The notes under the pieces are model-generated. The model was given only the letters and a program-made list of their open reading frames with translations. It was not told the origin of the DNA and did no database searches. The translations under genes were made by a program, and so were the position numbers. Positions 16,374 to 21,124 of a DNA stretch of 64,000 nucleotides are shown one piece after another (position 1 is the stretch's first letter; each line of letters begins with the position of its first letter). This stretch comes from a plasmid, in sequence record NZ_CP081674.1. The stretch is one strand, 5' to 3'.

Positions 16374-17063
16374 TTCGGTGGAGTTGGGGTGGGTGTTGGA
16401 GGTTGGTGGTGGTGTTCGTTCATACTGCGGGGCATGTCACTTGATGCGCTTGTGGCCGAGGCCGGTCAGGTGCTCGGTGACGCGCGCAAGATGTTTGGGC
16501 CTGCGCCGGCGGCCGGCGGATGGTCGAGCACACCGGCGCTGAGCGCTGGTAAGGACAGTTTGGCCCAGGCCGGGGGAGTGCTGGCGGGGTGGGGCGGAGC
16601 GAGCGCGACGACGCATCTGTCGGCCAGCGGCGGTCGTGTGGTGGCTCTGGACAATGTGATCGGCGCTGATCGAGGAACTGCGCCGGGTTTCACGGGGGCG
16701 GCCCAGACCTCTCAGTCTGGTGGTGGCGGGATGGACGACGTCAACGCCGACACGCGTAGGGGAGTGGCTGCGATTGCTCCGAGCACCGACACCCCGGCCG
16801 GTAAGACGCAGCTGGTCAATCATCTGCAGTCCCAGCTCGACCGTGCCAAAGCGTTGCTCAAGGTTTCCGAGTCGCGCAACGTGATGCTGGCCAATGCGAT
16901 TCGCAGCGCTGCAGGAGGCTATGGCGGCGGTATGCCGATGGGTGGCGGTATGGGTGGCCCGATGGGCGGCGGGATGCCCATGGGTGGCGGGGGAATGGGC
17001 GGTGGTGGACTACCCGGCCTCGGCGGCGCCGGCCTGATCCCCAACCTCTCCGCCTTCACCCGC
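16374..17063 (+). repeat. copy 1 of ~690-bp perfect direct repeat (promoter + first 225 codons)
   Basis: Nucleotide identity to 20435..21124 follows from identical overlapping ORF translations in two frames (16345/20352 and 16389/20450) and opposite-strand ORFs (16437..16823 = 20498..20884). Confidence 0.85.
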
Positions 17064-17519
17064 AACAGCTCGTCCCGGCGCGGGACTTCATCCTCGTCGG
17101 CCTCTGGTTTGAATCTTCGAACGCCGGTGCCGTCAGGCCCGGGCGCCGAAGCGTTCCGCGCCGCGGTACGACACGCCCTCGACATCAAGGGCATCACCAA
17201 CCCGCGAGCGCGCGCCTACTGGGAAAACGGCATGATGGTCGTCGCCGACCGCGAGTCGGACTTCAACAACCGCGCGGTCAACAACACTGACTCGAACGCC
17301 CAGAACGGCGATCCCTCCGCAGGCACTCTGCAGTTCATCAAGGCCACATTCGACGCCTACCACGAACCAGGTACCTCAACCGACCGTAGCGACAACGTCG
17401 CTCAAGCTGCGGCCTTCATCAACTACGCGATGGGCCGCTATGGCGTTAATCCCGACGGGCATGACCTGGCCGCCAAGATCCAACAGGCCGACCCGACGAG
17501 ACCGCCGAAAGGCTACTGA
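16389..17519 (+). CDS. secreted cell-wall hydrolase: shared N-domain + Gly/Met-rich linker + SLT-type lytic transglycosylase domain
   Basis: The C-terminus 'ADRESDFNNRAVNNTDSNAQNGDPSAGTLQFIKATF' matches the family-1 SLT catalytic motif (E-S…N…A…G-x-M-Q). The N-terminal 225 aa are identical to the 20450 gene. The probable true start is ATG 16434 (MSLDAL…). Confidence 0.7.
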   Translation: MGVGGWWWCSFILRGMSLDALVAEAGQVLGDARKMFGPAPAAGGWSSTPALSAGKDSLAQAGGVLAGWGGASATTHLSASGGRVVALDNVIGADRGTAPGFTGAAQTSQSGGGGMDDVNADTRRGVAAIAPSTDTPAGKTQLVNHLQSQLDRAKALLKVSESRNVMLANAIRSAAGGYGGGMPMGGGMGGPMGGGMPMGGGGMGGGGLPGLGGAGLIPNLSAFTRNSSSRRGTSSSSASGLNLRTPVPSGPGAEAFRAAVRHALDIKGITNPRARAYWENGMMVVADRESDFNNRAVNNTDSNAQNGDPSAGTLQFIKATFDAYHEPGTSTDRSDNVAQAAAFINYAMGRYGVNPDGHDLAAKIQQADPTRPPKGY

Positions 17520-17529
17520 CACAACCGAT

Positions 17530-18681: not shown

Positions 18682-20157
18682 TCAACAATCTCGGGTTCGG
18701 CTCCACCACCGTCGCACACGGGGCGTGCGCGAGGGCAACTCAGTAACCGGCCGCGTTTCCTGCTCGACGGCGGGTTTGCCAGGCTGTGGGGGAGCGACTC
18801 CGAGCACAGCGGTGCGTATGGCTTCGAAATCGCGCCGACGCCATGCGTCGAAAAGTGCAATGGTCGTGACGACCGGGATCGTCAAAGACTGCACGAATTC
18901 CGGTCTCGTGTACGCCTGGTGGGCGCGGTCGCCGGGATAGGTCTTGATCTGATGGTTGATGACGAGCGAAACGCCCTCAATCGCAACGTCTGGCCGTAGG
19001 GCTGACCAGGTGTCGAGGTGTCTCCGTGCATCTCCAACAAGTTTCTCTGAGGCATTGCCCGACTCGCTTTTGACCTCGACCAGGCGCTGTCGAGCTTGGT
19101 AGGTGACGAGTAGGTCAGCGCTTGCAGTGTTCTTGAGGTCGCTGTCGAGGGGAACAGCCGTCATCCCGGCGTCCGTCAGCACTGCCGCGACAGCATCCTC
19201 GAGAGATGTGGACCTGCCGTACAACAGGTTGAAACGCACCTCGTCTGCAGCGGAACGGGCTTCCTCGAGTATCTCGTCGAGCTGCTCGCACTGCACCCGG
19301 TATTGCTCGTCGAGTTCCGCCCGGGCCGCAGCCGCGGACGTTTCGGCAACAGTCTGCAGGGCAGGATCTTCGCCGAGATTGGCGTGGATTCGGCGTACCG
19401 CCGACGGCACGAACTCTGGAATGGCATGCTGCGCCAGCCATTCCAGAACGGTCTTCCAGGACGACAACCAAGGAATGATGTAATGACGGAGCTGCTCATC
19501 CGGGGAGATCCACACCGCGGCGACCACTTCCCCGGTTGTCGAGACGAGCAGGGGCTGCAAGGAGCCGTCGGGTTCCACCTTCTGCCCCGGTCCACCGCTT
19601 CCGGAGAAGATCATCGTTGCGCTGCGGTCCAGCGTCCACCAGTCCATGGCGAGATCACGTGTGTTGATCAGCCGTAATGCCAGGTCACGATCGGCACGTC
19701 CCAAACCTTCGACGATTGCGGGAACGACAACAAGTGGCGTGCGAAAGCCGCCCACTGAACCAAAACCATTCGCAGAGCCTGGAAGGTCGACACGTTCGTC
19801 AGCTCCGCCGAAGATGTCCCGGACATTCATCTCCGATGGTGGTCTGGGATGCCCGATCATCGACACCGCCAGTGCGACCTCGTTTCGATGACGTGACCCG
19901 GTGATGAACCGTGTCCACTCGGCCGCGCCGCGGTTGAAAACCTGGCTGGGTTCGATCGCGGCAAGCGCTCCGCTGCTGTCCTCACCGATCCACCGTGGTG
20001 TCAAACCGAGAGTGCGCCAGTCGAATTGCTCCGAGGTGAGCGTTGGGCGGACCCCTGTGCCGCCGAGGGATTTGTATCGCTTCACGGAGCCGTTGGGTAC
20101 CTTGTCCCACAGTGCCGGCGGCGGGTAGCCGATATGTATGTCGTACGCCTCAGCCAC
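18682..20157 (-). CDS. hypothetical protein with C-terminal PD-(D/E)xK restriction-endonuclease-like motif
   Basis: 491 aa; the C-terminal part 'ASADLLVTYQARQRLVEVKSESGNASEKL…INHQIK' matches a D…(E)VK…K nuclease core. The N-terminal 350 aa has no recognisable family. It lies 81 bp upstream of the sigma-r4::TnsA-like gene on the same strand. Confidence 0.45.
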   Translation of the reverse strand: MAEAYDIHIGYPPPALWDKVPNGSVKRYKSLGGTGVRPTLTSEQFDWRTLGLTPRWIGEDSSGALAAIEPSQVFNRGAAEWTRFITGSRHRNEVALAVSMIGHPRPPSEMNVRDIFGGADERVDLPGSANGFGSVGGFRTPLVVVPAIVEGLGRADRDLALRLINTRDLAMDWWTLDRSATMIFSGSGGPGQKVEPDGSLQPLLVSTTGEVVAAVWISPDEQLRHYIIPWLSSWKTVLEWLAQHAIPEFVPSAVRRIHANLGEDPALQTVAETSAAAARAELDEQYRVQCEQLDEILEEARSAADEVRFNLLYGRSTSLEDAVAAVLTDAGMTAVPLDSDLKNTASADLLVTYQARQRLVEVKSESGNASEKLVGDARRHLDTWSALRPDVAIEGVSLVINHQIKTYPGDRAHQAYTRPEFVQSLTIPVVTTIALFDAWRRRDFEAIRTAVLGVAPPQPGKPAVEQETRPVTELPSRTPRVRRWWSRTRDC

Positions 20158-20434
20158 ACGACGAGGGTAACCGCCAGTTCAGACATGCCAGCATGCTTTG
20201 CCGCCTACAACGTCGCCGCCGGGCCAAACATCATCGACAGTTCCCAGCGCACCAGGTCGATCCCGTTGCGCACCCGCGGATCGTCGGGATCTAGGCCTTC
20301 GGCTACCGCGGCGAGCCGCTCGTCAGCATCCATAACAGGTTCGACGCAGCGTTGGCGCGTTTGGTTCCACTGACCCGGAGCGCTTCCTCAACCCGCCTTC
20401 CCCAGCCTGATGCTGCACGCCACCGCATCGAGTT

Positions 20435-21124
20435 TTCGGTGGAGTTGGGGTGGGTGTTGGAGGTTGGTGGTGGTGTTCGTTCATACTGCGGGGCATGTCA
20501 CTTGATGCGCTTGTGGCCGAGGCCGGTCAGGTGCTCGGTGACGCGCGCAAGATGTTTGGGCCTGCGCCGGCGGCCGGCGGATGGTCGAGCACACCGGCGC
20601 TGAGCGCTGGTAAGGACAGTTTGGCCCAGGCCGGGGGAGTGCTGGCGGGGTGGGGCGGAGCGAGCGCGACGACGCATCTGTCGGCCAGCGGCGGTCGTGT
20701 GGTGGCTCTGGACAATGTGATCGGCGCTGATCGAGGAACTGCGCCGGGTTTCACGGGGGCGGCCCAGACCTCTCAGTCTGGTGGTGGCGGGATGGACGAC
20801 GTCAACGCCGACACGCGTAGGGGAGTGGCTGCGATTGCTCCGAGCACCGACACCCCGGCCGGTAAGACGCAGCTGGTCAATCATCTGCAGTCCCAGCTCG
20901 ACCGTGCCAAAGCGTTGCTCAAGGTTTCCGAGTCGCGCAACGTGATGCTGGCCAATGCGATTCGCAGCGCTGCAGGAGGCTATGGCGGCGGTATGCCGAT
21001 GGGTGGCGGTATGGGTGGCCCGATGGGCGGCGGGATGCCCATGGGTGGCGGGGGAATGGGCGGTGGTGGACTACCCGGCCTCGGCGGCGCCGGCCTGATC
21101 CCCAACCTCTCCGCCTTCACCCGC
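20435..21124 (+). repeat. copy 2 of ~690-bp perfect direct repeat
   Basis: See copy 1. Confidence 0.85.

Follow-up and report, generated by a model that had tools for sequence, protein, structure and literature searches.

How can two genes for quite different peptidoglycan hydrolases begin with the same sequence down to the last nucleotide? The question is raised by a plasmid locus in sequence record NZ_CP081674.1, of which a stretch of 64,000 nucleotides (hereafter the window) was analysed, and in which one direct repeat heads both an SLT-like lytic transglycosylase gene (g1) and an NlpC/P60 endopeptidase gene (g2). As judged from comparison with related replicons, the answer is concerted evolution: the two genes belong to an ancient set of paralogues, whose heads have been homogenised by recurrent gene conversion, and are not the outcome of a recent duplication. 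The reading as a whole, in which an old set of backbone hydrolase genes carries a converted 5′ module that brings each gene its own promoter and a common docking role, and in which the DNA between g1 and g2 is later cargo, seems to us probable.

The repeat and the two hydrolase genes

A comparison of the window with itself, which the initial annotation had proposed, finds a single repeat of at least 40 nt in the 64 kb. Positions 16374-17063 match positions 20435-21124 at all 690 nucleotides, in direct orientation and with 4061 nt from start to start, and the byte-identical direct repeat of about 690 bp that had been claimed is thus real. Chance origin of a repeat of this length is excluded. 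Its edges are sharp, since the 100-nt flanks outside its ends drop to 20% (left) and 30% (right) identity; this would be so because conversion tracts stop at the end of homology.

The division of the repeat into non-coding and coding parts depends on the choice of start codon. Mechanical open reading frames (ORFs) begin at GTG 16389 and GTG 20450, and from these come the 15 bp of upstream sequence and 675 bp (225 codons) of coding sequence given in the initial annotation. All orthologues, however, start further downstream at ATG (M-S-L...), after an invariant ATACTGC-N5, and because they do so, 60 nt of the repeat at each of the two genes are better counted as upstream sequence and 630 nt (210 codons) as coding sequence. 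The last residues common to both proteins are ...LSAFTR, beyond which g1 and g2 are without similarity. The features are as follows.

16374..17063, + strand: repeat copy A, 60 nt upstream plus g1 codons 1-210 (N-domain and Gly/Met/Pro linker); exact match to copy B, with limits that are the homology limits in all related plasmids
20435..21124, + strand: repeat copy B, the same 60 nt plus g2 codons 1-210; exact match to copy A
16374..16433, + strand, with a second copy at 20435-20494: conserved G/T-rich upstream element, recognised by cross-plasmid conservation and ATACTGC
16434..17519, + strand: g1, N-domain, linker and SLT-like lytic transglycosylase, 361 amino acids (aa); Pfam SLT, Glu-Ser motif, orthologues
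20495..21568, + strand: g2, N-domain, linker and NlpC/P60 (C40) endopeptidase, 357 aa; Pfam NLPC_P60, Cys and His motifs

The split after the common front end, into a lytic-transglycosylase-like enzyme and an NlpC/P60 enzyme, was also read correctly at the outset, with a solid score for the second and a marginal one for the first. In g2 the NlpC/P60 domain (PF00877) reaches 66.6 bits against a cut-off of 23 (E = 2.2e-18), the catalytic domain matches the RipC, RipA and RipB models of NCBIfam at the domain level, and both ‘FDCSGLTQWAW’, with the DCSG cysteine, and ‘GHVMLAI’, with the histidine, can be read in the sequence. In g1 the SLT domain (PF01464) passes its cut-off of 21.3 bits by the narrow margin of a 23.1-bit score (E = 5.9e-5, residues 275-352 of the 376-aa ORF). 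Its Glu-Ser motif, ‘VVADRESDFNN’, is readable and kept in the aligned orthologues, which terminate in ...PKGY/RGY in 10 plasmids. The same catalytic domain finds no relative among the PDB sequences, where only designed Kelch repeats appear, spuriously, and g1 has no match in NCBIfam. The assignment as an SLT-like lytic transglycosylase is a marginal one. An examination for signal peptides had been recommended; in hydropathy neither g1 nor g2 shows a signal peptide, a transmembrane or a hydrophobic segment, the maximum over 19 residues being 0.83. Exact-protein look-up of g2, with both possible starts, found no record.

Module identity within and between plasmids

A tblastn search with the N-domain led to 20 mycobacterial plasmids, and 13 loci were retrieved (loci are cited below by L number). 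The closest comparison covers 12 replicons, namely the window and 11 PLSDB plasmids; further cases come from a scan of one genome per species, in more than 12 genomes. In each of the 11 plasmids this N-domain heads two to three genes, which occupy one and the same place in the backbone, and in all about 25 related replicons carry the same two to three hydrolase genes there. In seven plasmids (L005-L010 and L012) the genes stand directly in tandem with gaps of 60-80 nt, and in two of these (L005 and L006) they form triplets.

Across these replicons the 5′ module behaves in a way that the rest of the genes does not. Its DNA identity within a plasmid is 89.7-100%, with 100% in 7 of the 12 replicons, and over the approximately 25 replicons it is 84-100%, with 95-100% in most. 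The mean is 97.9% for copies on one plasmid and 59.9% for copies on different plasmids (maximum 89.8%), and the nearest relative of every module copy in the 12 replicons is its own plasmid-mate. The homogenised tract, which covers about 45-70 nt upstream and 420-660 nt of coding sequence depending on the plasmid, takes in silent sites and the non-coding 55-60 nt. Copies separated by 16.7 and 34 kb retain 98.9% and 99.8% identity. The 3′ limit of the tract varies: nearly all plasmids have the core from -55 to +430 identical, and only some of them the linker as well. Even the closest relative found, a contig of Mycolicibacterium houstonense DSM 44676 with about 98% identity over window positions 16961-29891, has a module that differs from that of the window at 15 of 690 positions, whilst the window's own two copies differ at none.

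The catalytic domains, on the other hand, are about 45-65% identical across replicons and group by type from plasmid to plasmid. Between plasmids the N-domain has diverged about as much as the catalytic domain with which it is joined (59.8 versus 62.7% amino acid identity for SLT, and 47.2 versus 56.8% for C40), and therefore the duplication and the gene set should be as old as the plasmid family. Similarity is thus higher within replicons than between them, non-coding sites included, and the flanking parts of the genes are orthologous. This is the pattern of concerted evolution, and gene conversion, one of the options offered at the outset, gains from it as a long-standing, family-wide process. 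The mechanism would consist of recurrent non-reciprocal homologous recombination between the direct repeats, in tracts that halt where homology halts, with an occasional crossover that deletes the interval.

Concerted evolution by gene conversion is familiar in bacteria from tufA/tufB, from rRNA operons and from the esx and PE/PPE genes of M. tuberculosis. The present case resembles them in that paralogues are closer to one another within a genome than orthologues are between genomes, at silent and non-coding sites too. It differs from them in that homogenisation is limited to one module, promoter plus targeting domain, of otherwise non-homologous genes, and extends across a plasmid family. 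Gene conversion in repeats of M. tuberculosis is reported in PMC12046097.

At least four catalytic classes are found behind this head: SLT-like, NlpC/P60, a type with H..D and HxH motifs related to PDB entry 9flh, and one resembling Phage_lysozyme2. The third of these (L002:13161-14243, the third gene of L005 and L006, and the second gene of L008 and L009) has no Pfam or NCBIfam family other than the head's weak DUF4226 match, and matches a 129-aa chain of 9flh (‘LysM domain-containing protein’) at E = 4e-13; its motifs are suggestive of a LAS-type metallopeptidase. In M. abscessus plasmid pGD21-1 (L012:4565-5674) the first gene has, in place of SLT, a Phage_lysozyme2-like domain with 26.2 bits against a cut-off of 28.2. 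The first gene of Mycolicibacterium sp. CBMA 213 (L013:12019-13128) has a C-terminus that resembles, by sequence only, the one of pGD21-1. In these two plasmids the glycan-cleaving module has apparently been swapped with retention of the head.

Could the perfect repeat nevertheless be a young one, as the ‘very recent duplication’ of the initial annotation would have it? The idea that the front end of one gene was copied lately, too soon to diverge, accounts for 100% identity over 690 nt. It does not account for the same genes with the same catalytic domains, order and backbone position in about 25 replicons, with catalytic identities of only about 45-65%, and to give a near-identical module in each replicon it would require that every lineage had undergone its own recent duplication between identical end points; we regard it as extremely improbable. 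Scarcely better placed, and in our view highly improbable, is the possibility that the repeat or its perfect identity was made by the assembler, by using one unitig twice or duplicating a contig end. Short-read assemblies of the relatives do mishandle the repeat. In the M. houstonense contig (NZ_JACKVJ010000015.1) unitigs were stitched with untrimmed overlaps of about 104-106 nt at L014:6510-7412, with an ‘n’ at L014:6616, and the resulting false partial triplication is an assembly artefact caused by the repeat, inside which the contig also ends; in M. parascrofulaceum ATCC BAA-614 (L040) a separate 724-nt scaffold is the collapsed repeat of its plasmid group; and many database homologues of these genes are truncated. 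Against an artefact stand the many plasmid records with the same architecture, several of them marked complete, with 100% identical modules. Both genes are also intact and in frame, each with orthologues. Moreover, a Logan contig from an independent run (L048, the one contig found by look-up with the 99% relative P0072) is 98.4% identical to the window over 17035-20464 and ends 29-30 nt inside each copy, as a k-mer graph would do at a true repeat.

The initial annotation had also foreseen that recombination between the copies would leave one N-domain::NlpC/P60 gene, and such products are indeed present in relatives. The locus of M. paraffinicum M11 (L042) equals a plasmid segment of M. gordonae DSM 44160 (L037) at 100%, minus one 724-nt repeat and the catalytic part of g1 (1142 nt), a difference that stems either from a crossover deletion in nature or from an assembler that passed over the loop, and the pMUM plasmids have the N::C40 gene only. 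It could be imagined, then, that the arrangement was selected as a switch, with the SLT domain and the DNA behind it excised and re-inserted as a circle to alternate between a two- and a one-enzyme state; recombination would yield exactly the gene observed, and no site-specific recombinase would be needed. This seems very unlikely. Most relatives have their hydrolase genes directly in tandem, with repeats and nothing else between them, as the recommended comparison with related replicons shows, and therefore the repeat long predates the insert of the window and is independent of it. Triplets exist and copies up to 34 kb apart are homogenised as well, no recombinase, att-like site or inverted repeats flank the interval, the deletion would be irreversible without the circle, and L042 itself may be an assembly product. 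The deletion products show that the repeats are recombinogenic, not that they form a programmed switch. What the repeats do predict is recurrent deletion of the transglycosylase gene plus any cargo between the genes; and, being identical over 0.5-0.7 kb, they cause breaks or false joins when these plasmids are assembled from short reads, with truncated gene calls as a result.

Some of the loci deserve separate mention. Five isolates of four named species (L036-L039 and L041) have equal repeat lengths of 724 nt, gene lengths and C-terminal residues; they belong to a group that resembles plasmid pRAW, and the species of L036-L041 and L043 include M. gordonae, M. scrofulaceum, M. nebraskense, M. 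helveticum and M. parascrofulaceum. Base by base, L040 was compared with L037 and L042 with L037, both at 100%. The uniformity of the group would fit a recent spread of one plasmid between species. In some metagenome-assembled relatives (L017, L018, L019 and L028) one copy of the head is frameshifted or truncated, with L028:7847-8310 translating to 72 aa; these are either decaying copies or assembly errors.

The insert and the plasmid backbone

From the stop codon of g1 to copy B the insert measures 2.9 kb (17520-20434) and holds two minus-strand genes. The ‘3.4-kb cassette’ of the initial annotation is thus too long for the insert itself, and fits the unique span between the copies, the catalytic domain of g1 included.

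17530..18600, - strand: cargo gene 1, sigma-70 region-4 helix-turn-helix (HTH) and TnsA-like (PD-(D/E)xK) endonuclease N domain, 356 aa; Pfam, 4.6e-11 and 7.8e-10
18682..20157, - strand: cargo gene 2, 491 aa with a C-terminal Hjc-like domain, putatively of the PD-(D/E)xK fold; invariant D/E/K, AlphaFold2 (AF2) model and Foldseek

That both are nuclease genes is plausible, given the TnsA-like domain of the one and the invariant D/E/K residues and Hjc-like predicted fold of the other. In cargo gene 1 the Pfam domain Tn7_TnsA-like_N scores 43.5 bits, and the NCBIfam family TnsA_like_Actin scores 43 against a cut-off of 110. A Tn7-like transposon was considered as the nature of the insert and rejected, there being no transposase or ATPase partner, no terminal repeats and a TnsA family score under the cut-off. 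In cargo gene 2, D348, E361 and K363 are invariant in 39 homologues. Its AF2 model (mean predicted local distance difference test, pLDDT, 86) comprises a beta-rich domain at the N-terminus, a long coiled helix, and the putative nuclease domain, for which Foldseek places Hjc resolvases among the top ranks with probabilities of 0.96-0.99, at E values of only 4e-3 to 0.1; the TM scores on the target are about 0.43-0.51 and the root mean square deviations 3-4.4 A in the shorter (88-95-column) alignments. Cargo gene 2 belongs to no Pfam, NCBIfam or PADLOC family, and an exact-protein look-up of its 491-aa product found no record. PADLOC gave for the cargo only a match to MzaA, confined to the sigma-70 region-4 HTH (E = 8.4e-5), and no assignment to a defence system.

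A two-gene ‘nuclease cassette’ as a unit, which had been proposed, is not supported. Full-length homologues of cargo gene 1, with 27% identity over about 94% of the length, are carried by about 300 plasmids, the majority of them enterobacterial and predicted to be conjugative. It is a cross-phylum plasmid gene; of the mycobacterial loci retrieved, only the close relatives of the window (L014 and L048) have it between the hydrolase genes. On E. coli plasmid pL2-87 (L046, IncK2/Z) the homologue is found just after excA and before the hok/gef locus. A homologue of cargo gene 2 stands at the same position in an M. abscessus plasmid, and its family is widespread on actinobacterial plasmids and chromosomes (Streptomyces, Rhodococcus, Geodermatophilus, Saccharothrix and others). 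A single system of the two was accordingly rejected: the ranges, enterobacterial IncI/K-type plasmids and one M. abscessus plasmid for the one versus Streptomyces, Rhodococcus and mycobacterial plasmids for the other, are unrelated, and the genes co-occur in close relatives of the window only.

In other plasmids the same gap holds other DNA: insertion sequences in L001, an S8 peptidase and an ATPase in L002, short-chain dehydrogenases/reductases and an amidohydrolase in L013, and in L015 an ORF of 248 aa, which we take to be Gp37/Gp68-like, beside a large ORF on the opposite strand. The insert is lineage-specific cargo, and the gap between g1 and g2 looks like a permissive, recurrent landing site, plausibly tolerant of cargo because g2 brings its own promoter. 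In M. houstonense an extra 3 kb (L014:580-3621) lies between the g1 stop and the TnsA-like gene, with ORFs of 297, 271 and 169 aa, the second of which ends, by eye, in a SHOCT-like motif.

From its gene content the window is backbone of a mycobacterial plasmid with an ESX-P (type VII) secretion locus, as marked by the following features.

6..410, - strand: EccB homologue, N-terminal part, where the ESX-P locus meets the left edge of the window; tblastn with EccB of pTHAF192_b, 62% identity, E = 8e-45
13940..14920, - strand: ParA, backbone marker left of the hydrolase array; Pfam AAA_31/ParA and synteny in all related plasmids
21588..22337, - strand: counterpart, in position and orientation, of the relatives' HTH regulator, directly right of the array; annotation of the relatives
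23030..23470, + strand: WhiB-family regulator, backbone marker; Pfam Whib, E = 5.3e-12, and conserved synteny

The ORF at 21588..22337 itself has no Pfam match. From left to right the order is EccB N-terminus, DUF5632, PE/PPE-like, DUF2694, EspC-like, DUF4226, ParA and the two hydrolases, followed by the HTH-regulator counterpart (minus strand), WhiB, an N6/N4 methylase, a 2072-aa helicase and another DUF4226 gene. For the ESX-P/type IV-like conjugative plasmids of mycobacteria as a family, the backbone to which the hydrolase genes belong runs from Par genes through the hydrolase genes to an HTH regulator (minus strand), WhiB and, at some distance, a giant helicase. In the window, 6220-10665 (minus strand) is a conserved backbone cluster of genes resembling those for type VII substrates. 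It encodes a PE/PPE-like fusion of 589 aa and a DUF4226 protein of 664 aa, together with a gene like DUF2694/YbaB (8023-8331) and one like EspC (8328-8636); most related plasmids have this block too, under the annotation ‘type VII secretion target’.

A megablast search of the region against PLSDB gave two partial matches and no near-identical finished plasmid; the closest plasmid there is plasmid 1 of M. abscessus subsp. bolletii 50594. Further right, 43662-48709 contains a 759-aa tyrosine recombinase in a block that for about 3 kb shares 77% identity with Tsukamurella plasmids; there the counterpart is annotated as two integrases and DUF6262. After the recombinase block comes a tRNA-Ala (48638-48709, minus strand). 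From about 48 kb onwards GC content falls to 59-61%, and the genes have metabolic functions (esterase, amidase, alpha/beta hydrolases). The stretch 43662-48709 may be an integration module or the boundary of a cargo region.

The shared module and its possible role in conjugation

Each of these genes consists of some 55-60 nt of conserved upstream DNA, a helical N-domain with linker, and one catalytic domain. The upstream part is the better conserved between plasmids. Identity there is 71% over the 55 nt before the start codon and 78% from -30 to -1, compared with 57-66% in the coding part, and it falls to 23% beyond -60. There is no Shine-Dalgarno sequence ahead of the ATG of g1 or g2. Instead CATACT, or (C/G)ATACT across plasmids, lies 7 nt ahead of the ATG, overlapping an invariant ATACTGC; in the window the motif occurs at g1 and g2 only. 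Mycobacterial promoters have a -10 element of the form TANNNT, and leaderless messengers are frequent in these organisms. The position and conservation of the element suggest that it could be the -10 of a leaderless transcript, with one promoter for each gene. Rfam at gathering thresholds has one tRNA elsewhere in the window and nothing else.

The N-domain, of about 165 aa, is predicted at low confidence to be all-helical, with a WxG hairpin, then a DUF4226-like hairpin, and the Gly/Met/Pro linker after them. W53 is conserved in at least 90% of the relatives and G55 is invariant; both fall in a predicted loop between helices 34-46 and 56-77, where pLDDT is below 50. Pfam matches among 33 relatives are to DUF4226 in 14 (E < 0.01, best 9.4e-6), EspA_EspE in two and WXG100 in one, and an hhalign comparison with the window's own DUF4226 protein gives E = 4.7e-4 and a probability of 32%, with a P-[ST]-x-DTPAG motif in common. 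The second half of the domain is probably a divergent relative of DUF4226, membership of that family not being demonstrated, and the ‘WXG-like’ of the initial annotation is reasonable, if weakly supported and unproven: the conserved W53/G55 and the few WXG100 and EspA_EspE matches speak for it. A profile of the domain against PDB sequences found lectins only, spuriously.

Wall hydrolases without signal peptides need a dedicated export route, and these genes lie beside the ESX-P locus. The common module most likely provides each enzyme with its own promoter, probably for a leaderless messenger, and with the same docking or export domain for the conjugation and secretion machinery. Two to three wall hydrolases would in this manner be delivered to one site, the plasmid's mating apparatus, composed of ESX-P and components like those of a type IV secretion system (T4SS), where together they would act as CwlT, PrgK and TraG do in Gram-positive conjugation.

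In these systems, i.e., CwlT of ICEBs1 (cited in PMC4779608), PrgK of pCF10, TraG of pIP501 and also TcpG of pCW3, both domains are part of one polypeptide with a signal or transmembrane anchor. The likening of the present genes to them in the initial annotation is apt, as a glycan-cleaving domain and a peptidase of the NlpC/P60/CHAP type are again found on a conjugative element, but here the activities are split over two to three polypeptides, with a cytoplasmic-looking N-domain and neither signal nor transmembrane segment. In M. tuberculosis, RipA (NlpC/P60) and RpfB (lytic transglycosylase) are a cooperating pair exported by Sec/Tat and engaged in cell division and resuscitation. They resemble the present enzymes in pairing an endopeptidase with an enzyme of the lytic-transglycosylase type, and g2 in matching Rip models; they are, however, chromosomal and without a common N-terminal module.

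The nearest described counterparts are on pRAW, a plasmid of the same kind (ESX-P plus T4SS-like locus), the transfer of which needs both ESX-P1 and the T4SS-like locus (PMC4173767). In that paper a pair of ‘NLP/P60’ genes, located where ESX-P1 begins, is put forward as a possible bridge, and PMC4779608 reports that most ESX-P systems have a gene with an NLP/p60 domain. The pair on pRAW, mmarE11p_00580 and mmarE11p_00590 (Ummels et al.), are likewise wall hydrolase genes near the ESX-P locus, compared here by description only. The pRAW-like group above (L036-L041) has the same pair with a 724-nt identical module. The window plasmid is of a different, fast-grower lineage, with M. houstonense closest. 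The pRAW papers name the NLP/P60 family only, whereas g1 of the window and of the pRAW-like group is SLT-like with a ...PKGY C-terminus. No passage on a common 5′ module, on homogenisation or on third and fourth enzyme classes was returned by searches of PMC4173767 and PMC4779608, nor did literature searches on DUF4226 and on concerted evolution or gene conversion of mycobacterial plasmid hydrolases find a description of this module. The pRAW literature gives the genes themselves in outline; not found described in these searches were the homogenised module of promoter and head, its three to four enzyme classes, and the cargo site.

A helical head, a linker and a variable enzyme also call to mind the polymorphic type VII toxins headed by LXG or WXG100, in which a helical N-terminal WxG-type domain and a linker precede interchangeable C-terminal enzymes. 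If the N-domain were a type VII export head of this sort, the hydrolases would be antibacterial effectors directed at competitors or recipients, and the repeats would serve domain swapping. The conserved WxG-like head with at least four C-terminal types, the adjoining ESX-P locus and the want of a signal peptide agree with this. But no LXG match of Pfam was reported for g1, g2 or the 33 relatives, in which WXG100 or EspA/EspE appear three times; the tandem arrays, with their 60-80 nt gaps, leave no room for immunity genes, and none are present; the catalytic domains are stable, conserved orthologues rather than rapidly swapped cassettes; and a set that cleaves both glycan and peptide, at a fixed backbone position, fits conjugation hydrolases. 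A toxin system is, on balance, unlikely.

Several observations weigh against the reading of an ancient, converted set with a promoter and docking module. Three pairs are less homogenised than the rest (L008 at 89.7%, and L029 and L030 at 84%), and homogenisation could be neutral, the product of frequent recombination, with no selection to keep docking domains matched. The perfect identity seen in the window, and in some short-read or hybrid assemblies, may be slightly inflated if one unitig was used twice, whilst the near-identity of the copies is robust. A simple scan of 15900-21700 for sigma-70 consensus promoters and terminators found nothing. The AF2 model of the N-domain has a pLDDT of 58.8 and is confident at residues 100-145 only, and its Foldseek search against PDB has no match at E < 0.001, with PE/PPE and EspB far down and non-significant. 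The DUF4226 cut-off (PF10774, 23.5 bits) is not reached: the full proteins score 18.1 and 17.8 bits, and the domain taken alone scores 20.0. Lastly, inspection by eye of the window sequence and of the family consensus shows no YxxxD/E export motif, one of the type VII motifs for which an examination had been recommended, no formal search having been made.

In conclusion, the hydrolase genes are obvious candidates for opening the wall to the mating channel of ESX-P plasmids, and a head that is homogenised within plasmids and different between them points to a single plasmid-specific partner. It is possible, and we put it forward tentatively, that the module is a plasmid-specific export and docking domain through which the ESX-P system, or an ESX-P/T4SS-like mating complex, takes up the enzymes, and that conversion is favoured as it holds them all to a single promoter and to a match with one receptor that itself diverges. 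If this were true, these enzymes would be a first concrete substrate set, and a physical link, behind the requirement of both type VII and type IV machinery in the conjugation of mycobacterial plasmids, and the module itself would be an instance of domain-limited concerted evolution maintained by selection.

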